Virus record (IMG/VR): IMGVR_UViG_3300033518_000153 | Location: 1-30,311 of that record | Direction: 5' to 3' (one strand) | DNA from: a virus | Lineage: Duplodnaviria; Caudoviricetes | DNA length: 30,311 nt | In this document: in pieces, positions 7,147 through 25,108 of the stretch | How positions within the stretch are numbered: position 1 is the first letter of the stretch | Layout: each line of letters starts with the position of its first letter | Made by a program: the position numbers and the translations under genes | The notes under the pieces: generated by a model | Databases searched by the model: none | Told to the model about the DNA's origin: nothing | What the model saw: only the letters and a program-made list of their open reading frames with translations

Positions 7147-7190
7147 TTTTGTTTCCTCATACTATATTTATCAACTCGCACCTACTTAGC

Positions 7191-7250
7191 TAAATACTGT
7201 AGTTCGCGGGCGGCCACCCCAACTACTCTAATGCTATTAGGAGCACCAGC
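7191..7250 (+). promoter_or_regulatory. Conserved homing-endonuclease leader, copy 1 (TAAATA plus GTAGTT...AACTAC hairpin)
   Basis: Similar leaders at 10498, 17367 and 28107. Confidence 0.75.
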
Positions 7251-10454: not shown

Positions 10455-10562
10455 ATTTTGTTTAAGTTACTACAGTGCAGCGTCAACCTGTTTTTCATAA
10501 ATAACAACGTAGTTCGCGGGCGGGAACCCCAACTACTCTATCGTCTGGAAGGACACAACAGC

Positions 10563-11119: not shown

Positions 11120-11818
11120 TTATCTACTTTGGCTATAGATCTCAACCAACCTGTCAAGGCCAATGGCAATCTCACACACCCTGGTATCTTCGCTGAAGTC
11201 CTTGCGGATCGAGCAGCTTGCAATCTCCTTCCACTCATCGCGGAATGGCACTTCAATGTCCAACGTGCTTTCGCTGTATTCAGGCAAGCGATCGCTGTCA
11301 ACAACACGAGTGTCAAGCTGCAAGAAGCGCGACACTTCCTTGCGCACAAACGGAATCAGTGCAGCACGGTAGTCAGCTTGTGTGCCCACGCTGTAGATGC
11401 ATTGGAACTCCAGCTGGTAGAACTCGTTGAACCTCAGCTTGGCCGCAGTAGCGCCATCGCTCTTCTCAACACGGAAACTCTTACCAGCTTGCCAAACGCA
11501 CAGTGGCAGCTTCTTCTTGTCAAAGTTCTGACGTGCAAACATGTAGCTGCTAACAGTGGTCTCGGGGCGCAGTGCCAGATAGCTGTCTGCCTTCTTCACC
11601 TGCGTGACAAAGATGTCGCTCTCGTCGTAGCTGGGACTGACAAAGCTGCGAGGGGTAAGCAACGGGCCTTCCACACGTTTGAACTGCCATGCTCGGTTCA
11701 CACCAAGCAGTGTTTGCTTGACAACGCTGGCAAGCCGCGCTGTCATCATCTCTCGCATTTCGATTTCGTCTTCGTCCCAAAAGCGCAAGCTTTCGATTTC
11801 GTAAAGTGCCTGACTCAT
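11120..11818 (-). CDS. Glycyl-tRNA synthetase-like (alpha2-type) class II catalytic domain, no anticodon-binding domain
   Basis: LRPET, QAGKSFR.E, R..EFYQLEFQ, RLP.YS..T.DIE, W.EIAS.S.R.DF, E.AIGLDRL; only 232 aa. Confidence 0.85.
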   Translation of the reverse strand: MSQALYEIESLRFWDEDEIEMREMMTARLASVVKQTLLGVNRAWQFKRVEGPLLTPRSFVSPSYDESDIFVTQVKKADSYLALRPETTVSSYMFARQNFDKKKLPLCVWQAGKSFRVEKSDGATAAKLRFNEFYQLEFQCIYSVGTQADYRAALIPFVRKEVSRFLQLDTRVVDSDRLPEYSESTLDIEVPFRDEWKEIASCSIRKDFSEDTRVCEIAIGLDRLVEIYSQSR

Positions 11819-11879: not shown

Positions 11880-11956
11880 TGGTAGAATGCACGGGGTTCG
11901 AACCCGTTTCTCCGCCTTGAAAGGGCAGCGACCTTCGCCAAGAAGTCCAATGCGCC
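11880..11956 (-). tRNA. tRNA-Glu(TTC), poorly paired acceptor stem (possible pseudo-tRNA)
   Basis: Good D, anticodon (CT-TTC-AA) and T arms; acceptor GGCGCAT/GCATTCT mismatched. Confidence 0.6.
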
Positions 11957-12080
11957 ATTACTTAGAAGATGCACTGTGGGTTGTCTTACCTATCCATTCC
12001 CTGAGGTTTGCCGGCCGGCGTAAGGGCATAGGGTGCTTTCCCGAGCAGTTTTGAGAACAGTGCATCGTCAAAGTAATGTT

Positions 12081-12108
12081 TGGTGAACCGCCAGGGAATC
12101 GAACCCTG
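12081..12108 (-). pseudogene. Orphan tRNA 3' fragment (T arm, acceptor strand, CCA)
   Basis: CAGGGTTCGATTCCCTGGCGGTTCACCA directly after tRNA-Lys. Confidence 0.6.
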
Positions 12109-12114
12109 ATAGCT

Positions 12115-12196
12115 TGGTGAACCCGTGCAGAGTCGAACTGCTTGTCGGGGGATTAAAAGTCCCTTCCACCTCCGAGGGGGTCTAGACTACGGGTCC
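12115..12196 (-). tRNA. tRNA-Lys(TTT), atypical D region
   Basis: Acceptor GGACCCG/CGGGTTC, GGGA-CT-TTT-AA-TCCC, CCA. Confidence 0.7.
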
Positions 12197-12831
12197 AATT
12201 TTTTTATTAGTTCCTCAATGTATATTTTTTTAGCAGCATCGTCAAGTTTCTTGTATTTTGCCCACCTAACTCTGATTACCTTCCATCCGTTGTCTCGGAG
12301 GAATTTTGTTCTTCGTAAGTCGCTGCTGACGATCTTTTCATCCAAGTAGTGTTGTTCTCCATCAATCTCAAGCGCCACTTTTGGTCTTAGGAATGCAAAA
12401 TCGATACTGTATAATCGTATCTGGTATTCTTGCTCATAGTCAAGATTGTAGCTATCGAGAACCGCTTTCCAATAAATCTCCGGATATGATGCACCTCTAC
12501 TAGAGTGATTTAACAAATACGGAACCTGAGATGGATTCTTAAGCAAGTAATCGGTCCGGGCTGCAGAAATCTTTTGCTTGGTTTGGTCGGAATGTGTCCT
12601 GCCTTGCGATTTGGCTCTGATCTTTTTCTTTGTTAGATCATTGATTGCAAGTCGAGAATCAACATCCTTAGTTAAACCAGCATTCCAAGCTTTGTGGCCG
12701 GCCTTAAAGCCAGCATTTGGCGACGGCTTAGGATATATAACTCGATTTGGATTCAGGACGCAACCAAATTGATGCCTTGCTAATCCGCCCGAATTTGCAA
12801 TTTCCTTACCACAGTAAACACATGCCGCCAT
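12187..12831 (-). CDS. Vsr/DUF559-like endonuclease with N-terminal Zn finger and NUMOD3-like motif
   Basis: CVYC, HSDQTKQKIS, YSIDFAF...ALEIDGEQH...GWKVIRVRW; GGAGG RBS; stop lies inside tRNA-Lys. Confidence 0.85.
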   Translation of the reverse strand: MAACVYCGKEIANSGGLARHQFGCVLNPNRVIYPKPSPNAGFKAGHKAWNAGLTKDVDSRLAINDLTKKKIRAKSQGRTHSDQTKQKISAARTDYLLKNPSQVPYLLNHSSRGASYPEIYWKAVLDSYNLDYEQEYQIRLYSIDFAFLRPKVALEIDGEQHYLDEKIVSSDLRRTKFLRDNGWKVIRVRWAKYKKLDDAAKKIYIEELIKKLDP

Positions 12832-12871
12832 AATAGTCCTCCATTGAACTATTATTTATGCAAGTTAACTC

Positions 12872-13036
12872 CTATTGACCAATGATAGGACGCGGTCCAT
12901 ACTGTATGGATTGCATCGCGACCTTTTCCAAACGTCGCAGCGCCTTGTTGGTTTTACCGTGCGCTCCCGAACGTTTCGTAGCAAGATGGGCTACGAACGG
13001 ATTACGTTCTTTGGGCACTTGTCGTTTGTGTTTCAT
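12872..13036 (-). CDS. Small basic protein (54 aa, not in ORF track)
   Basis: MKHKRQVPKERNPFVAHLATKRSGAHGKTNKALRR...; AAAGGAG RBS, TTGACA promoter upstream. Confidence 0.7.
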   Translation of the reverse strand: MKHKRQVPKERNPFVAHLATKRSGAHGKTNKALRRLEKVAMQSIQYGPRPIIGQ

Positions 13037-13185
13037 CTTGCTCTCCTTTCTATGTAGTCAATATAACACGTTGTTGGGCAGTGTCAACCTCAATCTTCTT
13101 CGGTCCACTGCCAGTTGCCGTTCTCGTCGTAGTAGCCGATCCCAGCGTGTTCATTTCGGCTTCTGTGCTGTAGACAGGCGGTATG

Positions 13186-13256
13186 ATGCCCGAACACGAC
13201 TCGAACGTGTATCAACTGATTCAAAGTCAGCTATCCTGCCATTAGACGATCGGGCA
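13186..13256 (-). tRNA. tRNA-Gln(TTG), CCA not encoded
   Basis: Acceptor TGCCCGA/TCGGGCA, loop CT-TTG-AA. Confidence 0.85.
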
Positions 13257-13318
13257 ATATATTTGGGTTTTGTTCCTGCGTTCTGTCACGATACGCCCTG
13301 CAGACCCTACTGCCTATT

Positions 13319-13398
13319 TGGTGGACGGGATGGGAATCGAACCCACACGTTTGCCGGTTAAGAGCCGGTTCCAATTGACCACTGATTGGACCCCGTCC
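13319..13398 (-). tRNA. tRNA-Lys(CTT), 5-bp D stem
   Basis: Acceptor GGACGGG/CCCGTCC, loop CT-CTT-AA, CCA. Confidence 0.8.
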
Positions 13399-13495
13399 GA
13401 AATTTGTATAGCACATCACTCGGTAGAATTGAACCACAGTCAGCGCGTCGTCCACGTCTATGAACCATCGACCCGTCGGGTCGATGTGCTATTGT

Positions 13496-13582
13496 TGGTG
13501 GAGACGCACGGAGTTGAACCGTTAACGGTGCGCACTGTTTATCACCGCCTTGCGGCGGCCGCTGACTGGCAGCTTACGTCCC
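13496..13582 (-). ncRNA. tRNA-like RNA without canonical anticodon loop
   Basis: Acceptor GGGACGT/GCGTCTC, T arm, CCA; middle holds CCGCC-GCAA-GGCGG hairpin. Confidence 0.5.
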
Positions 13583-13594
13583 TATATTGTGTTT

Positions 13595-13670
13595 TGGTAG
13601 GCCTGTGGGGGTCGAACCCAACACCGACGCGATTTTGTAAGAATCGCCGACTACACCATAGCTGCGGCCT
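13595..13670 (-). tRNA. tRNA-Val(TAC), atypical extended anticodon stem
   Basis: GCGATT-CT-TAC-AA-AATCGC, T arm, CCA. Confidence 0.65.
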
Positions 13671-13679
13671 GTATTTGTT

Positions 13680-13756
13680 TGGTGCCCTGTGAAAGAGTCG
13701 AACTTTCTCTTGATCCATACCAGGGATCTGTGCTAAGCCGTTATCACTAACAGGGC
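13680..13756 (-). tRNA. tRNA-Thr(GGT)
   Basis: Acceptor GCCCTGT/ACAGGGC, GATCC-CT-GGT-AT-GGATC, CCA. Confidence 0.88.
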
Positions 13757-14299
13757 AATGTCTTTCCATTCAAGCTGGTGTTCAGTGAGCACAATAACGG
13801 TTATGTTATTTCTCAGCTGGGCTTGCTGGATTTTGTCTTTGTCTTTCTCCCGGAGATACGGATTCTTGGGATCCAAGTAAACGTCGTATTTCGGTAAGTA
13901 GAAATCTGGATAATACTTGTTGCCGGCATCCGTCCAAACGAACCCAGTGTTTGGCCTAGACCAAGCAATACCGTTCTTGTCAAGCGATTCAGCTACTGTT
14001 ACTTCCCACCTTGAATCAAACCATATGTCCTTGTATCGCTGTCCTTTGTTTGGATGTGGGCGATATCCACCTAAGTTAGAAGCCTTTGCTCTGGCGCTAG
14101 CTTCTTTCTTTTTTGCGTCACTCATCACATATTTTTGCAATAAACGAGACTCGGGTTGAGTCCGTGTAGCAAGGTTTAGGCGCTGTATAGTTTGGACAGT
14201 TACCTTGTAATGTTTGGCCAACTTGCGCAACGATAGTCCGTTGTCATACAACGTCTGCGCTTCGCTTTTGTCGATGTTTTTGGGTGCATACTTGTTCAT
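13733..14299 (-). CDS. HTH plus PD-(D/E)XK-type endonuclease
   Basis: LSLRKLAKHY HTH; FDSRWE...YYPDFYLP.YDVYLDPK; TATAAATA at 14305-14312; last 8 codons overlap tRNA-Thr. Confidence 0.8.
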   Translation of the reverse strand: MNKYAPKNIDKSEAQTLYDNGLSLRKLAKHYKVTVQTIQRLNLATRTQPESRLLQKYVMSDAKKKEASARAKASNLGGYRPHPNKGQRYKDIWFDSRWEVTVAESLDKNGIAWSRPNTGFVWTDAGNKYYPDFYLPKYDVYLDPKNPYLREKDKDKIQQAQLRNNITVIVLTEHQLEWKDIALLVITA

Positions 14300-14310
14300 G
14301 TGTTTATTTA

Positions 14311-14347
14311 TACCCAAAGAGGTGTAATACCATTATACGATAGCAGC
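14311..14347 (-). pseudogene. Orphan tRNA 5' half truncated at the anticodon loop
   Basis: GCTGCTA TC GTA TAATGGTAT TAC A CCTCT TTGGGTA running into TATAAATA. Confidence 0.6.
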
Positions 14348-14355
14348 ATGTTAGT

Positions 14356-14431
14356 TGGTAGCCCCAGCCGGACTTGAACCGAGCATCATTAGATTGAAAG
14401 TCTAGTATCCTTACCTTTAGACGATGGGGCC
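14356..14431 (-). tRNA. tRNA-Glu(TTC)
   Basis: Acceptor GGCCCCA/TGGGGCT, loop CT-TTC-AA, CCA. Confidence 0.8.
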
Positions 14432-14438
14432 GTTGTTT

Positions 14439-14513
14439 TGGTGCACGAAGAAGGAATCAAACCCTCGACATCCGCGTTACGAAGGCGGCGTTCTCTCACT
14501 GAACTACTCGTGC
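14439..14513 (-). tRNA. tRNA-Thr(CGT)
   Basis: Acceptor GCACGAG/TTCGTGC, loop TT-CGT-AA, CCA. Confidence 0.75.
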
Positions 14514-14519
14514 ATGAAT

Positions 14520-14597
14520 TGGTGTGCTGTCCTGGACTCGAACCTGGTTCTGCTGCTTTTCAGACAGCCGCTAAATCACCCGACTAGCTCACAGCAC
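14520..14597 (-). tRNA. tRNA-Phe(GAA)
   Basis: Acceptor GTGCTGT/ACAGCAC, loop CT-GAA-AA, CCA. Confidence 0.85.
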
Positions 14598-14604
14598 ATT
14601 GTTT

Positions 14605-14689
14605 TGGTGCACGGGATCGAACACCGCGCCGTTACCGGAAAAGCTTTACAGGCTCCTGCAAGAACCATCTTGCCTTACTTGCGCTCCCC
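14605..14689 (-). tRNA. tRNA-Tyr(GTA), degenerate acceptor/T stem
   Basis: GGAGC-CT-GTA-AA-GCTTT, variable arm, TTCGATC, CCA; acceptor does not pair. Confidence 0.55.
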
Positions 14690-14694
14690 ATATT

Positions 14695-14769
14695 TGGAAC
14701 CAGGTATGGGAGTTGAACCCAATCCATCTCAGTCACAGTGAGATATGCTACCCTTACACCTTACCTGGC
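14695..14769 (-). tRNA. tRNA-His(GTG)
   Basis: TCTCA-CT-GTG-AC-TGAGA, T arm, CCA. Confidence 0.85.
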
Positions 14770-14823
14770 ACTATTGGTCCCGACGGTAGGATTTGAACCT
14801 GGCTATCCACAATCGGGTGTGCT

Positions 14824-14871
14824 CGCCTCTAAGAGATGTAGTCTTACTATGCTATTTATCTCTTAGAGGCG
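14824..14871. repeat. Perfect 14-bp inverted repeat
   Basis: CGCCTCTAAGAGAT / ATCTCTTAGAGGCG; overlaps a minus-strand ATAAATA. Confidence 0.8.
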
Positions 14872-14878
14872 CTCTATG

Positions 14879-14947
14879 TAGTGCCAGTGAGAGTTGAACT
14901 CACCCTAGATCCTTATGAGAGATCTGTCCGAACCACTCGGTGTCACC
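14879..14947 (-). tRNA. tRNA-Met or Ile2 (CAT), compact, CCA not encoded
   Basis: GATCT-CT-CAT-AA-GGATC, GTGAG-TTCAACT-CTCAC. Confidence 0.65.
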
Positions 14948-14953
14948 ATATCT

Positions 14954-15028
14954 TGGAGTCACGTAACGGAGTTAAACCGTTCTAACTGGGTTTGCAATCC
15001 AGTGCCTCTGTCGCTCGGCCAACGTGAC
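14954..15028 (-). tRNA. tRNA-Cys(GCA)
   Basis: Acceptor GTCACGT/ACGTGAC, loop TT-GCA-AA, U73, CCA. Confidence 0.88.
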
Positions 15029-15182
15029 ATATTTCGTATTAGTGAAGCACACTCAGTGTGCTTGACAAATACAACCGGAATTTTACTAGTGCTCACCGCA
15101 CGTTGATCCTCCGGTCCGCCCATTTCGGTTTGTTTATAGTGATTACCGCGCAGTCTCGTTCCGCATGTCCACTTAGTCCATT

Positions 15183-15219
15183 AAAAAACCCTCCTAGTAT
15201 CGCTACTGGAGGGCTTTTT
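15183..15219 (-). terminator. Attenuator terminator A
   Basis: CCCTCCAGTA-GCGA-TACTAGGAGGG-TTTTTT. Confidence 0.9.
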
Positions 15220-15242
15220 GGAATTCCTGTGATGCTGTTATG

Positions 15243-15338
15243 CTAGCATCCGGTTCCGCCTCCAGTGTTCTCGCCAAAGCGATACTCACGGCATTTTTCA
15301 ATGCGAATCTCAAACATATGTTGCTGGACGTGGGTCAT
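15243..15338 (-). CDS. Putative attenuator leader peptide A (31 aa, MTHVQQHMFEIRIEKCREYRFGENTGGGTGC)
   Basis: Between promoter and terminator; ACTGGAGG (15259-15266) is complementary to terminator 5' arm; codons mirror downstream tRNAs. Confidence 0.75.
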   Translation of the reverse strand: MTHVQQHMFEIRIEKCREYRFGENTGGGTGC

Positions 15339-15390
15339 TTGCTGTAGCTTTCTCTGGTGCGTTGCCGCTGTTGTCTTACTTGTTGTAGTT

Positions 15391-15419
15391 ACTGTATACT
15401 TATTTATCTCTGCCGTCAA
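15391..15419 (-). promoter_or_regulatory. Sigma70-like promoter with embedded late motif, upstream of leader A
   Basis: TTGACG-N17-TACAGT with ATAAATA in the spacer. Confidence 0.7.
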
Positions 15420-15464
15420 CCACTATTAGTGGTTTTCTGGCATCTTTTTTCTGCGTCGTGTTAG

Positions 15465-15557
15465 TGGCGGAAGCGGTGGGATTCGAACCCACGGAACGCT
15501 CATCACGTTCATCTGTTTTCAAGACAGGCGCCTTAAGCCGGACTCGGCCACACTTCC
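15465..15557 (-). tRNA. tRNA-Ser(TGA)
   Basis: CCTGT-CT-TGA-AA-ACAGA, long variable arm, GCCA; TATAAATA upstream. Confidence 0.93.
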
Positions 15558-15629
15558 ATATTCGTTATGTTATTTATACACGGAGACGCCAGGCTGGTCA
15601 ACCTTTTTCTCCGTGTATCTGCATTTTTC

Positions 15630-15893
15630 TTAGATGTAGTAAATCACAGTCTTTGGATCCAGGTAGGCCGTTTGCTCCGGATCCACCATCCATCCTTGGC
15701 TTTGGATGATCTCAGCAGTGCGGACCACGCCACGGTTGCTATACCAAACGTGGTCGCCACCGCTGCCAATCACGTGCTCGTAGTTTGCTGGAATGCCAAC
15801 CACGCGGGTGCATTCGTCTGGGGTAAGCTTGCGTCTACTGGCGCGTAGTATCAGCTCAAAGTAGCAGCCGTCTGCACTGTGGCTCAGGGTCAC
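15630..15893 (-). CDS. Hypothetical protein, start uncertain
   Basis: 87 aa ORF downstream of TTGACA promoter near 15983. Confidence 0.4.
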   Translation of the reverse strand: MTLSHSADGCYFELILRASRRKLTPDECTRVVGIPANYEHVIGSGGDHVWYSNRGVVRTAEIIQSQGWMVDPEQTAYLDPKTVIYYI

Positions 15894-15988
15894 ATACGGC
15901 AGATTTGAGAGTGATGGTGTATTTGGTCATCTGGCTTTCTCCGTTGCCTACAGTTCAATATAGCACAGAGTGTGTTGGTGTCAACCGT

Positions 15989-16366
15989 TTAGAATGGGTT
16001 GAGTGCGCCCCACAGCATACGGAACAGCGCCCATGGCCATAGCAGCGGCAAACGACGCTTGTGTGGTGCTGGTGTGTCTCGCCACTTACGCACGGTGCTG
16101 TCGATCCAACCATGCTCCTTGTGCCACAGCACAACGTGGCGCGGCAGTAGTTTGTTCTGTGGCGAGTGTGTCAGCCAAAACACTGCGCGGAAGGTGAGCA
16201 GTGCCCAGATAGCCTTGAGCCAACCGCCCTCAACAGTGAGCAGCGTGGTCAGCGCAAAGTCGTTGCAGTTGCCAGCGTATGGCGCACTGTCGATACGGCG
16301 CCAACCTGTGATGAATGTCCAACCCTTGCGGTAAGTGAACTTTGAGATGAATTCTGTGCTTGTCAT
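15989..16366 (-). CDS. Hypothetical protein with Cys/His/Asp triad-like motif
   Basis: GNCNDFA...HVVL...WID resembles transglutaminase-like cysteine protease; GGAG RBS. Confidence 0.6.
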   Translation of the reverse strand: MTSTEFISKFTYRKGWTFITGWRRIDSAPYAGNCNDFALTTLLTVEGGWLKAIWALLTFRAVFWLTHSPQNKLLPRHVVLWHKEHGWIDSTVRKWRDTPAPHKRRLPLLWPWALFRMLWGALNPF

Positions 16367-16644
16367 GTTAACTCCGTTTTATATCTGCCGATCCGTCCCC
16401 GGCCCCTGTTCTTTCCTTTGTAACTGTCAGTCATACTGTGGCAGTTCGGACAGAGCAGCCTTAGATTTTCTAGTGCATTGTTATGCGGGTCGCCGGCGGT
16501 GTAGTCTAGTTCGAGAGTAATCGGTTGCCCTTGCCATTCTGTTAGCTTGCACATACTGCAACAGTTGCCGACGGTGTCTCTTACATACCTCTTAGCCCGC
16601 CCCGGTGAGCGTCTGGCTGCCACGACACACCACCCTCTAGCCAT
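16363..16644 (-). pseudogene. HNH endonuclease, probably degenerate
   Basis: CSMC...LELDY..GD..NN.LENLRLLCPNCHS (expected His replaced by Tyr); N-terminus appears in another frame (16581..16778). Confidence 0.7.
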
Positions 16645-16815
16645 TGCTCAACTCTGACTTTGTTCTCGTGTTCTTTCTCAATCGAGGCGGCAGTGCTGCA
16701 TGGCACTGAGCGCAAACTGTTGGTGATTTGTCGTAGTCTAATCTTTGAGGGGCGAGTGGCATAAATAACTCCTTGCATGGTTATTTATGCCACTCGGCTA
16801 CTAGGGCGATATTTC

Positions 16816-17112
16816 TTATGCTGTCTTAGGCTTGTTTCTTTCAATTGCGATGCTCTTCTCAATGATGGCAAACTCTGGCCAATCAATTCCTTCGCTGTGC
16901 ATGGCGGAAATCACGTTCTCAATGCCAGCCAGGTTTGTTTCATACTGCGACTCTTTGATCTTGGTCAGCATGGCTTTGCTCACACTTGGCTTCTCAAGGT
17001 CCGGAATGCCCAGCTTGTCCTTGGCCCAATATCCCACATCCATTGGAATAGTCTCGGTGACACGCTTGTCGTCTGTCTCGCTCGACTGTAAAGCTTCTTT
17101 GGCCCACTGCAC
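16816..17112 (-). CDS. Hypothetical protein, possibly a gene fragment
   Basis: 98 aa protein-like composition, GTG start without clear RBS. Confidence 0.45.
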   Translation of the reverse strand: MQWAKEALQSSETDDKRVTETIPMDVGYWAKDKLGIPDLEKPSVSKAMLTKIKESQYETNLAGIENVISAMHSEGIDWPEFAIIEKSIAIERNKPKTA

Positions 17113-17427
17113 TTATTGAACGCCAGTCTCGACCTTACCACTTGTCGACACTCTATAATAGAGTGACCTGCTCTCCGGATGGGATTCGGGCTGGCCGTTC
17201 TCAATTTGGCGATCCGTTAGCCTCGCTGGGTTGGAAACCAGCTGGTGAGACCCCTGTAAAGACCAGGATGTTGTTTTTGTGCTGTAGGTCGGGACGGATC
17301 AAGCCCGATAGTCTACCTTATAGCATACAAGTTAGCATGATTTTTTGATCATGTCAACCAAAATCATACATAGTGATGTAGCTCGCGGGCGGCAACCCCA
17401 GCTACTCTATTGTTTAGGGACAACAGC

Positions 17428-17961
17428 ATGAATATTTACCCATACGTCTATCGCATAGACCACCCAAGTGGTGAGTTCTACATCGGCTACCGCTGCGCTA
17501 ACCAAGTGCCAGCTGGAGCAGACATTGGATACAAATACAAAACCAGCACTAAGCACTTATCCTATCCGTTTGAGGAATACAGCATCACTATCTTAGCTGA
17601 GTTCTTTACTGCCACTGCTAAGACAGACGCGCTTGACTTCAAACAGGCAACTATATACGAGCATTGGGGCAACCCATTCCTTGTAAACAAACGCTGCAAC
17701 TACAACGGACAACGGTTTAGCACTGCCGGAACAACATTGTCTTCTGCTACTAGGCAAAAGATGTCAACCAGTCGTCGAGGTGTTCCTCGCAGCGAGGAGA
17801 CTAAGGCAAAGATTCGAGAAGCAAATCTCGGCAAGAGCTTGTCAGATGAACATCTGCGTAAGATTTCAATCGGGCGTCGCGGAAAAGGCACTGCGCCAAA
17901 GACAGCCGAACATAAGCGGAAGATTTCTGAATCCTTACTAGGAACATACAAGACTCGTTAG
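17428..17961 (+). CDS. GIY-YIG-like/NUMOD3 homing endonuclease
   Basis: YVY...FYIGYR, SEETKAKI repeats, conserved leader. Confidence 0.85.
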   Translation: MNIYPYVYRIDHPSGEFYIGYRCANQVPAGADIGYKYKTSTKHLSYPFEEYSITILAEFFTATAKTDALDFKQATIYEHWGNPFLVNKRCNYNGQRFSTAGTTLSSATRQKMSTSRRGVPRSEETKAKIREANLGKSLSDEHLRKISIGRRGKGTAPKTAEHKRKISESLLGTYKTR

Positions 17962-17964
17962 ATG

Positions 17965-17997
17965 GAAAAAGCCCAACATTGCTGCTGGGCCTTTTTC
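17965..17997. terminator. Bidirectional intrinsic terminator closing tRNA cluster B
   Basis: AAAAA-GCCCA...TGGGC-CTTTTT between convergent units. Confidence 0.75.
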
Positions 17998-18001
17998 TAT
18001 T

Positions 18002-18076
18002 TGGAGCGGGCGATGGGATTCGAACCCACAACTTCAACCTCGGCAAGGTTGCACTCTACCATTGAGCTACGCCAGC
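18002..18076 (-). tRNA. tRNA-Gly(GCC)
   Basis: CAACC-TT-GCC-GA-GGTTG, TCCA. Confidence 0.88.
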
Positions 18077-18084
18077 ATGTGATT

Positions 18085-18158
18085 TGGAGCGGGTAGCGGG
18101 GAACGATCCCGCTTCTGAGCGTTGGCAACGCGCCGTAATACCTTTATACGATACCCGC
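18085..18158 (-). tRNA. tRNA-Gly(GCC), second divergent copy
   Basis: Acceptor GCGGGTA/TACCCGC, loop TT-GCC-AA, TCCA. Confidence 0.85.
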
Positions 18159-18189
18159 ATTTGTTTTGGTCTGTATTGGACCGTTGTTT

Positions 18190-18241
18190 TGGTCCGAGTG
18201 GACCGTTGTTGTTTGGTCTGGCCAAGCTGAGCTACACTCGG
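18190..18241 (-). pseudogene. Collapsed tRNA-Pro-like remnant
   Basis: CCGAGTG TAGCTCAGCTTGGCCAGA...CACTCGG ACCA; anticodon and T arms absent. Confidence 0.6.
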
Positions 18242-18651
18242 ATATCTTTTCTACGCTGCCAAGCAAGCTTCATTGCTTCGCTTTGTGTCTTCTTGTATTT
18301 ATCTGTCTTGTGGTTCGCAGAATTCTTATTCTGCATCATCTTGCTAGAAATTATCGCTTTGGTTTCGTCTGTATGAGCATCAACGCCGCCGGCGGCATTA
18401 AGTGATATTTTACTTCTATGCTCGGCTGTCTTTGGTATTCCTTTGTTGCCCTTGCCGCCTAACCTTGATTTCTCTAGCAGCATTTCTTCTTGGCCTATTA
18501 GTTTCAACAGACCCAAATACGCAATCTTGTCTTCAACTTTTCCGTATTGCTCATACAGCACACGATGCGCTTCAGCATGTTCTTCGATGGTCAACTCGAT
18601 TAGGTTAGTCGGATTATCGTCGCCGCCCATATGCCTGGGAATGATGTGATG
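18232..18651 (-). pseudogene. HNH/NUMOD3 endonuclease, 5'-truncated
   Basis: HHIIPRHMGGDDNPTNLIELTIEEHAEAH; first His pair lies upstream of the first ATG (18630). Confidence 0.7.
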
Positions 18652-18689
18652 GAGAGTCTTTCAGTCACGCGGTAAGCCGCGAGCTGTAT

Positions 18690-18773
18690 TGGTGCGGATA
18701 GAGGGACTCGAACCCCCACGCCTTGCGGCAATGCGTTCTAAGCGCATCAAGTCTACCATTTCATCATATCCGC
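18690..18773 (-). tRNA. tRNA-Leu(TAG)
   Basis: ATGCG-CT-TAG-AA-CGCAT, variable arm, CCA. Confidence 0.92.
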
Positions 18774-18780
18774 ATTAGTA

Positions 18781-18860
18781 TGGAGGCCTAGAATGGATTT
18801 GAACCACTACCTTTACCCTTGCACGGGTAACGAGTTAAATGCCAATTTCTCTACCAGGCC
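18781..18860 (-). tRNA. tRNA-Cys-like (GCA) with non-7-nt anticodon loop
   Basis: Acceptor GGCCTGG/CTAGGCC, U73-CCA, TTACCC-GTGCAA-GGGTAA. Confidence 0.55.
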
Positions 18861-18865
18861 AATTC

Positions 18866-19372
18866 TTAGAATTCGTTTGCTGACCTCGGAACCTTCTTTG
18901 GATCCAATTTGGGCAGCGGTTGTTTAGTCTCTTTGTAGGTTGATGGCCAACGTGCTGCCAGCAGTCTAGTCTTTACAATACGCACAATGCTCACTGTATC
19001 GCCCTGGTTGCCACCTAGCACATAGTAGTCTGTGGCGTCTTCGCCGACCAATATGCCCACGTGTCCTGCGTTTTCGCCTCGGCTAAACGCACCAATTGCG
19101 CCATACACTGGCTTGGTTGCTTTTCCTAGTAGGGCCCAGTTACGAGCCCAATATGGGTTCTCTCCAAGCGCACCTGGAAACGGTTCTTTGGGCAGTGAGT
19201 TCTTAATCACCGTCTCAGCAAAGTCACCGCACCATGGCAGTTTGGCTGGATCGCCCAGCGTCTTACCATCCGACTTGAGCCAAGCTCGCAGTTTGGTTGC
19301 GTCTCTACTTTCGTGTAGGCCCCAAACCTTTTTGGCTTCAACAATCCATGGTAGTTCTTTAACAGCTAACAT
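18866..19372 (-). CDS. TIGR02594-family (NlpC/P60/CHAP-like) cell-wall hydrolase
   Basis: PWI..A...G..E, PWC..F, AR.W, GHVG, VLGGNQ.D.V, RWP. Confidence 0.85.
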   Translation of the reverse strand: MLAVKELPWIVEAKKVWGLHESRDATKLRAWLKSDGKTLGDPAKLPWCGDFAETVIKNSLPKEPFPGALGENPYWARNWALLGKATKPVYGAIGAFSRGENAGHVGILVGEDATDYYVLGGNQGDTVSIVRIVKTRLLAARWPSTYKETKQPLPKLDPKKVPRSANEF

Positions 19373-19467
19373 AGCACATCTCCCGTTGCTATGTCTATAT
19401 TTATTGCCTCTGTGGTTTAATACAGTTTTTGTTATACTATGGTAAATAGTTCAAAGGAGATCAAACT

Positions 19468-19827
19468 ATGCCAAAAAAAGGTGAAGTTGTTAAAACGCAC
19501 TTATGCGAAACATGTGGCGAACGCAATCCAACTAACTTCAATCCCAGGATGAAAGGCACTTGCAAAAAGTGCCATACAAGGGACATTGAACGGCGTCGAG
19601 TATCGCGCAGAGAACTAGCCATTGAATACAAGGGCGGCAAGTGTGAGCATTGCGGTTACAACAAATTCCGTGGCGCTCTTGAGTTTCACCACAAAGACCC
19701 AACACTAAAGGATCCACAGGGTTTGAAGGCTGTCAAGCTTTCGAAGTTGTTTGCCGAAGTTGACAAATGTCTGCTACTGTGCGCTAACTGTCATAGGGAA
19801 GAACATGACCGTATACGTTATGGTTGA
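19468..19827 (+). CDS. HNH endonuclease
   Basis: KGGKCEHCGY...LEFHHKDP...E.DKC.LLCANCHREEH; TAAATA and AAGGAG upstream. Confidence 0.9.
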   Translation: MPKKGEVVKTHLCETCGERNPTNFNPRMKGTCKKCHTRDIERRRVSRRELAIEYKGGKCEHCGYNKFRGALEFHHKDPTLKDPQGLKAVKLSKLFAEVDKCLLLCANCHREEHDRIRYG

Positions 19828-20030
19828 ATATGCACCGAACCCTTATACTACATGGCCAACGCCAAGGCGGTCGAGCTAATCCCGCATCTTCTGGTTATCC
19901 CCAGCTGTATTATAGGACGCGTCAACGCCCGCCGCTCTAGTTCTTTCGGACCACAACAGTTGACGATTCGTCAAGTCGAGCATAGGACTTATTGGTGCTA
20001 GTGGAGGGACTCGCCTTTCACTAGCTAATT

Positions 20031-20105
20031 TGGTGCCCCAGGTCGGAATCGAACCAACACACTCGCCTTACAAGAGCGAACCTCTACCATTAAGGATACA
20101 AGGGC
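20031..20105 (-). tRNA. tRNA-Thr(TGT)
   Basis: TCGCT-CT-TGT-AA-GGCGA, CCA. Confidence 0.88.
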
Positions 20106-20108
20106 TTA

Positions 20109-20249
20109 TTAGTAACTTTTCTGTTCGGCATACCTTACTCGTCTTGAATGCCTACCATTACCTTTATTTTTAGATTTATACGTTGCAGTTTGCGAATGGC
20201 AATTCGGACACAATAGACTTAAATTTTCTTCGCTGTTATTTATCATCAT
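20109..20249 (-). pseudogene. HNH C-terminal remnant
   Basis: NNSEENLSLLCPNCHSQTATYKSKNKGNGR, similar to 16363..16644. Confidence 0.7.
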
Positions 20250-20282
20250 AACTAAAAAAGGTGCTGTCGCCGCTGAGCCACA

Positions 20283-20543
20283 CTAGCGTATTTCTTCGAG
20301 GTATTTATACACCTCGTCGTAGGACTTGAACATTCTGGTTCCACGCTTTGATACTACGCGCACATCGTCTCCGAAGCACTGCACTAGTCCAAATCCTGGA
20401 TACCTACCGTTACCAAGTCGTCTTGCATTCCATCTGGTGCGGCGCGCCCCTGGTGTCGCAAACTCGTGCGGTATACCTAGTATGTCTGCGCAGCGCCCGT
20501 AAAATTCTTCTTTCTCTTCGTTTGTCTTTTTCATATTGCCCAC
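20283..20543 (-). CDS. Hypothetical protein
   Basis: RRTRWNARRLGNGRYPGFGLV motif, 86 aa. Confidence 0.65.
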   Translation of the reverse strand: MGNMKKTNEEKEEFYGRCADILGIPHEFATPGARRTRWNARRLGNGRYPGFGLVQCFGDDVRVVSKRGTRMFKSYDEVYKYLEEIR

Positions 20544-20832
20544 TCACATACGGATATTGTTGTTTAGATAGGCCTGGCACTCCAACACGCCTTCTCGAGT
20601 GTAATGTTGTCTAGCCGGGTAGCTTGCGGCATTCCTCACACTTCTCATGCGGGCCTAAATTGTATTGCGCCGCTGAACACTACCACAGCGTTTGAGTTAT
20701 TTACTAATCCCGCTCCATGATCAGTGGGGTTGAGCCTCGTGCTATTACCTCATCCCACTCCACGTGGGCACCACGTGTCCGATTCAACACGGTGCACCGC
20801 GTCTCATCTTTTTCTGTGGCCTAGCGCAAACT

Positions 20833-20906
20833 TGGAGCGGGTGAAGGGAGTCGAACCCTCGTCTTCTACTTGGAAGGCAGTGGCTCTACCATTGAGCTAC
20901 ACCCGC
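20833..20906 (-). tRNA. tRNA-Gly(TCC)
   Basis: Canonical, loop CT-TCC-AA, TCCA. Confidence 0.92.
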
Positions 20907-20984
20907 ATTATCTCTTGCATACCCTGAAAAGGTTACCACCGTAGTGCGTCCCAGCTCTGTTATGGCTGGATGACCGTGCTGTTT

Positions 20985-21070
20985 TGGCGGAGCGGCTGGG
21001 AGTCGAACCCAGTGAACTCGAAAGTCCTACAGATTAGCAATCTGCTGCATTACCATCCTGCCCCCGCTCC
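20985..21070 (-). tRNA. tRNA-Ser(GCT)
   Basis: GCAGA-TT-GCT-AA-TCTGT, variable arm, GCCA. Confidence 0.92.
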
Positions 21071-21076
21071 ATTGCG

Positions 21077-21298
21077 TCACTTTTTAGTGCTGCATGTGAA
21101 CTCAAGTCCACTTTGTCTTGCAGCATAGAAGTGAGGCGTTGTAGTTTTGTATAGTGTCATCTTGATGAACCCTGGAAGGATCACCACAATCTTGTCTGCC
21201 GTGGTCTGGATCAACTCTGCTTCTTGCTTCTTGCCATTGTTCGTGCAGTAAACGTCTACCAGATCCTTGAACCTCGAGCTAGTATTGATGTCTGCCAA
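21077..21298 (-). CDS. Hypothetical protein
   Basis: 73 aa, AAGGA RBS, TTGACT promoter upstream. Confidence 0.65.
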   Translation of the reverse strand: MADINTSSRFKDLVDVYCTNNGKKQEAELIQTTADKIVVILPGFIKMTLYKTTTPHFYAARQSGLEFTCSTKK

Positions 21299-21386
21299 CT
21301 CTACGTTCCTTCTTTGTCAGTTAACTATAGCACTACCTAGTGCCACAGTCAACCTTTGTTTTTGGTGCGCGATGAGCGCATATTTT

Positions 21387-21462
21387 TGGTAGGGGATGAG
21401 AGGGTCGAACTCCCGACATTCTGCGTGTAAAACAGACGCTACTACCACTGAGCTAATCCCCC
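21387..21462 (-). tRNA. tRNA-Val(TAC)
   Basis: TCTGT-TT-TAC-AC-GCAGA, CCA. Confidence 0.9.
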
Positions 21463-21469
21463 AATGTTT

Positions 21470-21546
21470 TGGTGGACCCTGTCGGGATCGAACCGACGAA
21501 CCTCCTGAATGCAAATCAGGCGCTCTCCCAACTGAGCTAAGGGCCC
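21470..21546 (-). tRNA. tRNA-Ala(TGC)
   Basis: G3:U70, loop TT-TGC-AT, CCA. Confidence 0.93.
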
Positions 21547-21576
21547 TTTCTTATTTTCAATGTAACACACTATTGT

Positions 21577-22212
21577 TTAGGTGTCAACATGTTTATTTAG
21601 CACTCTTCCGAAACGCCAACCTGCCGGCACAGTATCTGTTGCTGATATCTTTTTGTTGTTAAGACCATCAGTAATCCATACTTTTCCAAACTGACTGTTT
21701 TTCTCTCCAACTGCAACCCCTTTTGAGCTGGCTCTTATTTTTTGCTTAGTCTCGCTGCTATGGGCTTTTCCTTTGAACCCATCGTGTCGTATACGTCCTG
21801 CTAGTCGTGCAGCCTCAAAGTTGTTACTGCATTGCGGATTTTTTCTTCCTCTGCGTTTTTCAGCAGTTTTCCTAATTCCGCGCATTTTTGATTCAGTTGG
21901 CAAGTTGTTGATGCCAAGTTGATTGATATAACCAAACCCGCCTTGACCGCCTACGCACAAGTTGTAGTTGTCTTTTCGTAGACACCATTCTTCAGTAACC
22001 AGCTCTTTTTCTTTTTGATTCATTTCGGCTTCTGTGCTGTAGACATGCAGTATGGTTTTAACGAAGTTCTCGGCGCCGTATTTGGCAATGGCTCTCTTCA
22101 GGTGCTTGCCCGAACCCATATAGCCGTCGTTGACTTGACTGGTTTCGTGCTTACCGATGTAAGTTTTGCCATTCACCAAGTTAGTGATTTTGTAGATGGT
22201 GTAGTATTTCAT
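21577..22212 (-). CDS. GIY-YIG (Seg-like) homing endonuclease
   Basis: YTIYKITNLVNGKTYIGKH...DGYMGSG...YN...GG.GGF, NUMOD3; likely start MKYY at 22212. Confidence 0.92.
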   Translation of the reverse strand: MKYYTIYKITNLVNGKTYIGKHETSQVNDGYMGSGKHLKRAIAKYGAENFVKTILHVYSTEAEMNQKEKELVTEEWCLRKDNYNLCVGGQGGFGYINQLGINNLPTESKMRGIRKTAEKRRGRKNPQCSNNFEAARLAGRIRHDGFKGKAHSSETKQKIRASSKGVAVGEKNSQFGKVWITDGLNNKKISATDTVPAGWRFGRVLNKHVDT

Positions 22213-22279
22213 GTTGTGCTCGCCTGCAAATGGAATAGTCTGATTGTTATTGCTATTTACCATTTGCAGGCGCTCTATG

Positions 22280-22350
22280 CGCGCTATGCGGGGCTCGAAC
22301 CCGCTACACCGGTTAGACAGACCAGTGAGATACCCATTCACCAATAGCGC
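22280..22350 (-). tRNA. tRNA-Asp(GTC), CCA not encoded
   Basis: Acceptor GCGCTAT/ATAGCGC, loop CT-GTC-TA, G73. Confidence 0.8.
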
Positions 22351-22550
22351 ATTATTCTGGTGCGTGTTTACTCCCTACACGCAGGTCCCACACATCACCG
22401 CAGCATACAAAGCCTGCTGGGCTACAACGTGCGTGGCGCTGGCTTTCTAGTTTTGACATGCTTTGGTCGGCTCACCGATTCGAACGGTTAAGTAATACGA
22501 GTAGTATCCGCATACCTACGCCAAAGAACGCTCGTAACTCATGTCAAAAT

Positions 22551-22625
22551 TGGCAAGGGTGGAGAGATTCGAACTCTCACTGCAAGGTTTTGGAGACCCG
22601 CCGACTTCCAGTATCATACACCCCT
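22551..22625 (-). tRNA. tRNA-Trp(CCA)
   Basis: Acceptor AGGGGTG/CACCCTT, loop CT-CCA-AA, GCCA. Confidence 0.88.
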
Positions 22626-22760
22626 ATAATCTGTAACCAGTTACTGGATTCGAACCAGAATCTACTCTAGGGCCAATTACTCCCATCACTGAGCGTGTTA
22701 ACCTGCATCACTGCAGGAAGGCTTACCATTCGCCAATTTTACAACCACAACCGGTAATCT

Positions 22761-22824
22761 TGGCTCCTTGTGCTGGGCTCGAACCAGCGACACTCTGATT
22801 AATAATCAGATACTCTAACAAGGA
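22761..22824 (-). tRNA. D-armless tRNA-Asn-like (ATT), possible pseudogene
   Basis: Perfect acceptor, anticodon and T stems; D arm reduced to TAGAGTA. Confidence 0.6.
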
Positions 22825-22832
22825 ACGATCTC

Positions 22833-23222
22833 TTAAACGCCGTAACGGTTGCGCTTTGGTTTAGCTACAACACTGGCTTTGTTTGTGTTTGGTGGTTCTT
22901 GGCTGCGCTGGCTTGTAAGCTTGGTGGGTGTAACACCCATCAATTTAGCAGCCTTGTTCATAATCTCAAGTTCTTCTGGCGTGTATGTGCCAACTAGGAA
23001 GTTTTCAGCATACGCACTTTCTTGGTCAAACGGTTGATCGCTGCTGGCTGCTGCCAACGCAATTCCCATTCTGTATTGCATGTAACTGTCAGTGTTGCGC
23101 AGTTGCTTGAATGCATTCATGCCGGTGTTCACTGCGTCAAACGCTGGATCAACCTCTCCAGGCGTTCCCATAGCGCCGTCACCGTAAACAGCTTCACTTA
23201 GTATTTCATGCAATCGCATCAC
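22833..23222 (-). CDS. Hypothetical late protein
   Basis: MRLHEILSE N-terminus, AAGGA RBS, TAAATA at 23241-23246. Confidence 0.75.
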   Translation of the reverse strand: MMRLHEILSEAVYGDGAMGTPGEVDPAFDAVNTGMNAFKQLRNTDSYMQYRMGIALAAASSDQPFDQESAYAENFLVGTYTPEELEIMNKAAKLMGVTPTKLTSQRSQEPPNTNKASVVAKPKRNRYGV

Positions 23223-23314
23223 GTGTCCTTTTGGCTACAGTATTTAGCCAAAATTCTTGCGTCTTATGGATTTGGCGTCCTGCGCTAGTGTAAACCCATC
23301 ATGTTCTTCTCACT

Positions 23315-23387
23315 TGGCAGGGGACCCCTGAATTGAACAGGGACCTGAACCGGCAATCGGGACTACGCTGCATTACACCAATCCCCT
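23315..23387 (-). tRNA. tRNA-like gene with degenerate anticodon arm (nominal TTG)
   Basis: Acceptor AGGGGAT/GTCCCCT, T arm, GCCA; loop GATTGCC lacks U33. Confidence 0.5.
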
Positions 23388-23576
23388 GTAACCTGCTAAG
23401 TTCTCCAACAACTGATTACCCAGCGCCTCTGGTGGAGCGTTTGTTGGATAGGCGTGCATTGACGCCTCGTTTTACTTCTAACATGTAGTCTTGTAAACTT
23501 TGGCCAATCTTTCCCGGTGTCAGCATTGTAGGATTTCTCATGTCCAAGAGCGCGGTTGCTTCGCTTCAGACTAACT

Positions 23577-23655
23577 TGGTCCGGGTGGCTGGATTTGAAC
23601 CAGCGTTCTCCTGTTTCCAAAACAGGCAGATTAAACCATGCTTTCCCACACCCGG
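23577..23655 (-). tRNA. tRNA-Pro(TGG)
   Basis: CCTGT-TT-TGG-AA-ACAGG, acceptor CCGGGTG/CACCCGG, CCA. Confidence 0.88.
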
Positions 23656-23663
23656 ATATTTTT

Positions 23664-23742
23664 TGGTTGCGCAGACTGGATTTGAACCAATGATCTCCAG
23701 CTTATGAGGCTAGCGAGGACGCCCTGACTCCTCTACCGCGCG
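23664..23742 (-). tRNA. tRNA-fMet(CAT), initiator-like
   Basis: C1:A72 mismatch, loop CT-CAT-AA, CCA. Confidence 0.85.
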
Positions 23743-23757
23743 ACAATTCTTTAGTTT

Positions 23758-23843
23758 TGGCTCGGACGGGAGGAATCGAACCTCCGCCAACTTAATGGGA
23801 CACTGGTTAACAGCCAGGCACATTACCACTCTGTCACATCCGA
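23758..23843 (-). tRNA. tRNA-Asn(GTT) with long variable region
   Basis: Acceptor TCGGATG/CGTCCGA, loop CT-GTT-AA, GCCA. Confidence 0.82.
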
Positions 23844-24904: not shown

Positions 24905-24933
24905 TATATAAGCTGTCTCGTCGTGTTTGTCAA
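24905..24933 (-). promoter_or_regulatory. Sigma70-like promoter downstream of terminator B
   Basis: TTGACA-N17-TATATA. Confidence 0.6.
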
Positions 24934-24956: not shown

Positions 24957-24990
24957 AAAAAACCCTCCTAGCATCGCTGCTGGAGGGTTT
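24957..24990 (-). terminator. Attenuator terminator B
   Basis: AAACCCTCCAGCA-GCGA-TGCTAGGAGGG-TTTTTT; homologous to terminator A with a compensatory pair. Confidence 0.9.
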
Positions 24991-25018: not shown

Positions 25019-25108
25019 TTAGCCTCCGTAACCCTCCGAGCATAGATCCACACTCGGATTTGTCCATCCGTTGCTACCTAGTGCTACTGTGTTGGCGAGT
25101 GTAAACAT
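25019..25108 (-). CDS. Putative attenuator leader peptide B (29 aa, MFTLANTVALGSNGWTNPSVDLCSEGYGG)
   Basis: AAGGA and ATAAATA upstream; GGAGGGTT (25030-25037) is complementary to terminator 5' arm; codons mirror downstream tRNAs. Confidence 0.75.
   Translation of the reverse strand: MFTLANTVALGSNGWTNPSVDLCSEGYGG

Follow-up and report, generated by a model that had tools for sequence, protein, structure and literature searches.

We found an element in a phage genome that is very likely a multivalent, ribosome-mediated transcription attenuator. It appears to gate a phage tRNA cluster, and most of its leader codons specify amino acids carried by the tRNAs downstream. The reading as a leader-peptide attenuator is supported by the geometry of the element, its recurrence before tRNA arrays, a terminator-only control, and the match of leader to cluster. 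The element occupies positions 15183 to 15419 (minus strand) of a 30,311-nucleotide virus record; the whole record was analysed and is called the window here.

The 30.3-kb window contains tail-like, endolysin, Pth2, synthetase-like and endonuclease genes, and closely related DNA is present in two aquatic metagenome runs (X1, X2). At default settings it has 26 tRNA genes, every one on the minus strand, and degenerate extras besides. Cluster A (11880..15028, minus strand), an array interrupted by endonuclease ORFs, holds Cys-GCA, Met-CAT, a His remnant, His-GTG, a degenerate Tyr-GTA, Phe-GAA, Thr-CGT, two Glu-TTC, Thr-GGT, Val-TAC, Lys-CTT, Gln-TTG and Lys-TTT. Four of these (Tyr-GTA, Met-CAT, Val-TAC and Lys-TTT) are degenerate and fall below default thresholds; a related contig has 91 additional letters in the Tyr region. 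At the end of cluster A is a gene resembling class II aminoacyl-tRNA synthetases (11120..11818, minus strand; PF00587, E=7e-8), and beyond it a Pth2 gene (9385-9041, minus strand; PF01981, E=4e-32). Cluster B (15465..23843, minus strand) has tRNAs for Asn, an fMet-like Met, Pro, Trp, Asp, Ala, Val, Ser (two) and Gly (four), with Thr-TGT and Leu-TAG.

An Asn-derived tRNA at 22824-22760 lacks the D arm and has anticodon ATT, a 5' tRNA half at 14348-14314 was severed by an endonuclease ORF, and a 3' tRNA half at 12110-12077 is duplicated. These remnants indicate that the tRNA array is decaying in places. One and the same hairpin with TAAATA lies 3' of tRNA-Met (14878-14825) and of tRNA-Asp (22280-22220), both on the minus strand. 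After tRNA-Asp it runs into a GIY-YIG gene; after tRNA-Met the gene is gone and half a tRNA-His is left. A tRNA-like element at 13585-13494 (minus strand) has a CCA end and a weak tmRNA match (E=0.1) and is without a normal anticodon arm. On the plus strand, a 50-nt element is repeated at 7185-7234, 10495-10544 and 17364-17413, 5' of related endonuclease-like ORFs.

An earlier note on this DNA had proposed an attenuator upstream of cluster A, with a promoter, a 31-codon leader, an antiterminator and a terminator. We found every part at its proposed place on the minus strand. A σ70-like promoter (15391..15419; TTGACG-17-TACAGT at 15419-15391) has an embedded TAAATA (15406-15401), which we take, from T4-like phages, to be a likely phage late promoter. 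The σ70-like site scores 9/12 and is a weak match alone, with 13 such sites in the window and 9.0±3.3 in shuffles. A palindrome at 15433-15417 overlaps its -35 box and is a possible operator or tRNA-Ser terminator. The leader ORF (15243..15338) runs from ATG at 15338 through 31 codons to TAG at 15245-15243. It has eight distinct homologs of 29-32 codons, and its ribosome binding site is weak, as the note had cautioned. Segment 2, the antiterminator strand ACTGGAGG (15259..15266), lies in the leader's last codons. The pairing proposed for it holds: the strand at 15266-15259 is complementary to CCTCCAGT at 15212-15205, and the inner helices GGAA/TTCC and GATGCT/AGCATC (15220..15257) flank the stop codon. 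The intrinsic terminator (15183..15219) comprises segment 3, CCCTCCAGT (15213-15205), segment 4, GGAGGG (15194-15189), and U6 (15188-15183). The first genes downstream are a structured RNA and tRNAs, with the synthetase-like gene 3.4 kb on. The structured RNA (15080..15175, minus strand) follows the terminator directly and is conserved, with 83-86% identity in other phages. Its consensus fold has two-sided changes at 2/20 pairs, and it matched no Rfam family. In L004 and L090 it adjoins a stretch matching ~24546-24495 of the window, and the two may be parts of one larger RNA.

The 206-nt leader RNA has a fold z score of -3.87 (0/200 shuffles did as well), and its minimum-energy state is the terminator. 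Predicted local energies are -24.0 kcal/mol for antiterminator A (segments 2:3) and -19.2 kcal/mol for terminator A (3:4). In the full-length RNA at equilibrium, the terminator is favoured by 4-9.5 kcal/mol, with a probability of ~99% wherever the ribosome stands, and switching therefore has to be kinetic. By the usual logic of attenuation, 2:3 would have to form first and outlast polymerase crossing of the U tract. We folded nascent RNA with a masked ribosome footprint, assumed to be -18/+12 around the A site. The antiterminator probability was 99% with the ribosome at codons 2-22, 78% at codon 23, and 0 from codon 24 to the stop, a loss that is partly built into the folding model once segment 2 is masked. 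As a folding prediction, this bears out the earlier proposal that a ribosome at the stop codon melts 2:3 and permits termination. Most of 20 units folded (see below) had the same step shape; L011, L058 and L067 were irregular. In leader A the predicted zone boundary coincides with the end of the A-type codons. In the predicted structures the antiterminator engages eight bases in the 5' arm of the terminator, so that the terminator has almost nothing left from which to nucleate.

We propose the following mechanism. While a ribosome is on codons 2-22, GGAGG would be free to capture CCTCC, the terminator would be blocked, and polymerase would read into the tRNA genes. A ribosome at the last codons would cover GGAGG, and the terminator would form. 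If charged tRNA for any one of His, Gln, Met, Phe, Glu, Ile, Arg, Lys, Cys, Tyr, Thr or Val ran short, through starvation, through exhaustion in the course of infection or through host tRNA cleavage, more phage tRNA would be made. The new phage tRNAs would then shut the switch again.

The choice between 2:3 and 3:4 might instead be made without a ribosome, by uncharged tRNA (as in a T-box), a protein, or a downstream RNA. Mutually exclusive folds do exist, and a conserved RNA comes directly after the terminator. However, only ~150 nt of leader precede segment 3, and in every unit the frame is open and its stop position fixed (see below). Rfam covariance models found no T-box or other riboswitch and nothing at gathering score (the best was Phe_leader, 19.7 bits vs 55, E=0.76). 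We consider a ribosome-independent switch extremely improbable.

The codons of leader A correspond to the tRNAs of cluster A. Its predicted sensing zone (codons 2-22) specifies Cys, Glu, Phe, His, Ile, Lys, Met, Gln, Arg, Thr, Val and Tyr, and a structural tail follows. There are 12 different amino acids in 20 codons, and runs or clusters of one to three regulatory amino acids are absent. Fifteen of the 20 codons at positions 2-21 are for amino acids of cluster A tRNAs, as counted earlier; the share expected from the protein composition of the window is 0.40 (binomial P=0.0017, with Tyr put into the cluster A set by hand because ARAGORN misses the Tyr tRNA). A larger count of 18/20, which included Arg, fails at the anticodon level: the Arg tRNAs at 8.1 and 10.4 kb have TCG and a weak TCT, unfit for the CGC and CGT codons of leader A. 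The GTC codon would need extended wobble by Val-TAC.

Five of the 20 zone codons (Ile and Arg) are without a cognate tRNA in the window's cluster A. The note had raised the Ile codons as a caveat. The lack of a cognate here stands, but it is largely explained by the homologs: among six with >2 kb of downstream DNA, cluster A contains Ile-GAT in 5/6 and Arg-ACG in 4/6, so this phage has probably lost both. Preference for U-ending codons in A leaders was weak (P 0.03-0.29 per locus).

We found a sister element at 25108-24957 (minus strand), upstream of cluster B. It has a leader ORF of 29 codons (25019..25108), an antiterminator, GGAGGGTT, at 25037-25030, and a terminator (24957..24990) with the same CCCTCC/GGAGGG stem as in A and U6. 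The predicted zone of leader B (codons 2-22) specifies Ala, Asp, Gly, Leu, Asn, Pro, Ser, Thr, Val, Trp and one Phe. Counting only amino acids with a tRNA in one cluster, the ratio of A-only to B-only codons is 12:0 in leader A, where the hand-added Tyr tRNA contributes one codon, and 1:13 in leader B (Fisher P=2.7e-6). The split is repeated in two related genomes that hold both elements (13:2 vs 1:15 and 15:2 vs 1:15). Thr and Val, common to both leaders, have tRNAs in both clusters. Among Thr codons, ACA accounts for 13/17 in B leaders and 0/9 in A leaders, and Thr-TGT is present in 6/6 B clusters. With Met, the two leaders include 19 amino acids in a conservative zone and all 20 in the zone set by folding (to codon 22); of random draws of 42 residues plus Met, 0.9% cover all 20. 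Leader B would act like leader A for the remaining amino acids, and A and B would together cover all 20.

The promoters of the two types differ. TTGAC is found 56-81 nt 5' of the ATG in 8/9 A-type units (a raw count without background), and B-type units have only TAAATA (6/6), without a σ70-like -35 box. TAAATA lies within 110 nt in 22/27 units of all types, again a raw count without background. The difference in -35 boxes suggests that element A is active early and late, and element B late.

Three other observations concern the surroundings of element B. A TTGACA promoter-like site (24933-24905, minus strand) lies 25 nt 3' of terminator B and is visible in B-type homologs too. From 24800 to 24130 (minus strand), between terminator B and the first tRNA, ~650 nt are without a long ORF; blocks of this stretch are conserved in other phages, and it had no Rfam match. 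A short Ala-rich ORF 5' of leader B contains three 24-nt tandem copies (25311-25240).

The element recurs before tRNA arrays. We scanned viral sequences with a pattern that combined antiterminator copy, stem and U tract and nothing else, and found 14 loci (11 distinct). All 14 were followed at 7-776 nt by tRNA genes on the same strand, and in 14/14 an ORF ended just 3' of the GGAGG copy. As a control, we scanned for the terminator only, taking 120 of ~150 matches; those with 1 kb or more of flank came to 81 distinct terminators. Among these listed matches, an upstream antiterminator copy was present at 8/8 terminators before tRNA arrays (two or more tRNAs within 3 kb) and at 1/73 others (Fisher P=2.8e-10). 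A metagenome scan (120 of ~210 matches) and a scan for the A-type motif, in which 5/32 matches were real units, contributed further units. At least 31 distinct units had a tRNA at 1.2 kb or less, and 27 were kept. Units L032, L071, L312 and L316 were excluded ahead of the counts, since in each of them the end of a groEL-like gene and the ORF overlap; L017, L214 and L029/L055/L211 were outside the unit-finding rule and are absent from the statistics. The exact 25-letter terminator pattern had 0 matches in viral contigs, protein-based locus searches (3 loci each) found only distant relatives without the element, and blastn of leader A against GenBank phages gave 3 chance matches.

The stop codon was 18-22 nt after GGAGG in 22/27 units (search range 12-30). 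An open frame and the fixed stop position were kept across all units, ORF length was also kept, and leaders of unrelated sequence had a common geometry and a content that tracks the tRNAs. A second role of GGAGG, as Shine-Dalgarno sequence for the terminating ribosome, was considered and set aside; the spacing fits, but it is confounded by the search pattern.

A plain terminator between transcription units, with an independent or incidental peptide and tRNAs made from other promoters, would account for some of these data. The terminator is the equilibrium state. Promoter-like sites are present inside the array region (at 13087, as TAAATA before endonuclease genes, and as the TTGACA at 24933) and could bypass the switch. 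Covariation within classes is absent: cognate 2:3 pairing was no better than pairing with swapped partners within A (P=0.72) or within B (P=0.63). Across all 27 units, cognate pairing did beat swapped partners (P=0.008). The GGAGG/CCTCC core is invariant and was selected by the search pattern itself, and in the A alignment two-sided changes occur in 3/23 consensus pairs. In contrast, a plain terminator does not account for the tie between antiterminator copy and tRNA arrays among the control matches, or for unrelated leaders that share geometry and track tRNA content. Variation at third codon positions does not exceed that at first positions (405 vs 407), which is unlike ordinary protein selection, and we found no strong promoter from terminator A to tRNA-Cys. 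We give this explanation very little probability. Two metatranscriptome contigs span terminator A (X19, 15125-15495; X20, 15094-15289). They carry no weight because they are of low depth (2-4) and without ends or strand, and pieces of X19 are on other genes (possible DNA carry-over).

We found that leaders match their own tRNA clusters. In 22 units with three or more tRNAs each, the own-cluster match of zone codons was 0.74, and 0.49±0.04 after permutation (P=1e-5). With one unit per type, 2/5040 permutations matched as well as the real pairing. Relatedness among the compared phages means that all P values given here overstate independence. The Leu, Ser, Tyr and Phe leader of L076 matches its tRNA set in 9/11 codons, that of L007 (Cys, Gln, Phe, Pro, Leu, Tyr, Glu) in 15/22, and that of L346 in 8/14. 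Phages with one mixed array have leaders of 15-18 different amino acids and little or no match signal; the near-universal leaders L004, L011 and L097 gave none (P 0.14-0.53).

Such broad leaders would also fit a general sensor of translation coupling, which responds to any delay or absence of the leading ribosome, by translation inhibition or by uncoupling from a fast phage-modified polymerase. Codons would then only tune the response, with little specificity for single amino acids. Without a ribosome, 2:3 was predicted at 99% or more in 16/20 units, so a block of translation would turn on the tRNAs, and an untranslated leader would be read through by default. A 1:2 hairpin like that of the trp/phe type is not evident, and the untranslated default is accordingly predicted to be ON; in folds and consensus we saw no conserved 1:2 pause hairpin, and the consensus has only two weak upstream hairpins. 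According to the available text of PMC1183508, hypersensitivity requires a 1:2 pause hairpin, and gain should be low where each amino acid has few codons (here 1-3, mixed). A general sensor, however, leaves unexplained the mutual avoidance of amino acids by leaders A and B, and why composition tracks the tRNA set in L076, L007 and L346. We think it unlikely. For the attenuator that reads tRNA charging, the low expected gain and the lack of an evident pause site indicate a broad alarm rather than a fine rheostat. On this model, the element is best seen as warning that any one of a dozen charged tRNAs has been severely depleted.

The pattern also occurs in bacteria. Among 120 of ~130 matches in bacterial genomes, 80 had >300 nt of flank; tRNA genes were within 1.5 kb in 5 of the matches listed, and a matching leader was found in one. 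This locus (L346), in an Acidobacteriaceae MAG, has a Leu/Ser-rich leader before tRNA-Leu(CAG), Ser(GCT) and Ser(CGA), with ordinary cellular genes around. From its sequence, it is a possible bacterial tRNA-operon attenuator in an apparently chromosomal context. A near-identical leader is on a metagenome contig (L129), and the L346 leader was not found in the 150 other genomes of the family sample (151 searched). The same DNA pattern also retrieved bacterial leaders with runs of Trp, Met, Thr or Phe typical of classical attenuators. Leaders with Met, Thr, Phe or Trp runs and this stem are on bacterial contigs, Patescibacteria MAGs included: L026, L028, L057, L125, L138, L294, L297 and L317; L045 and L327; L053 and L322; and L054 and L374. 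L349 and L114 have mixed-codon leaders with the same geometry, and no tRNA was seen downstream (1.8 kb were read in L349).

Attenuators of amino-acid operons include the multivalent thr and ilv leaders. In E. coli pheST (pheM), attenuation follows charged tRNA for one amino acid and acts on a cellular synthetase gene. The phage element likewise would make the control of part of the translation apparatus depend on charged tRNA; unlike pheST, it is a phage element with many amino acids and tRNA genes. In T-box riboswitches, tRNA charging sets the choice between terminator and antiterminator by direct tRNA binding through one specifier codon. The phage element shares that choice, but it is built on an ORF predicted to be translated and has no Rfam match. 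The available text on leader-peptide attenuators of amino-acid operons, such as trpL and pheL, describes a short leader ORF, exclusive 2:3 and 3:4 hairpins, a U-tract terminator and codons cognate to what lies downstream (PMC1183508, PMC3082878), all of which the phage element resembles. Unlike the trp/phe type as described there, it has phage tRNA genes as targets, with no biosynthesis, transport or synthetase genes up front, 10-12 amino acids per leader without runs, and two complementary leaders.

The nearest functional parallel is the trn L-array of Anabaena PCC 7120, a long tRNA array with associated endonuclease genes that is induced by translational stress via the repressor TrcR (PMC8421152, PMC10272220). 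Unlike the phage element, the Anabaena array as described in the available text has a protein repressor at a promoter and no codon-level matching; 'attenuat' and 'leader' have 0 occurrences in the text of PMC8421152 available. We found no description of attenuation of tRNA genes in the literature searched, largely papers outside subscription. Phage tRNAs serve as counter-defence against anticodon nucleases, as in the T4 and T5 cases, and this gives a reason for tRNAs on demand. In the literature on counter-defence tRNAs we found no feedback sensor of phage tRNA supply.

We suggest tentatively, at a little less than even confidence, that large phages audit all 20 amino acids through two channels, each attenuator leading to the cluster that relieves it, in a protein-free loop that senses attack by host anticodon nucleases, and that some bacterial chromosomal tRNA operons may share this logic. 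These results address the question of why phages keep large tRNA arrays and when the arrays are used. The match of codons to array shows which shortages the phage was selected to detect, and demand-driven and counter-defence hypotheses become testable with a 250-nt reporter. If the proposal is true, ribosome-mediated attenuation would extend from enzyme operons to tRNA genes, its range would grow from between one and three amino acids to half of the code, and compact sensors of tRNA depletion would become available.
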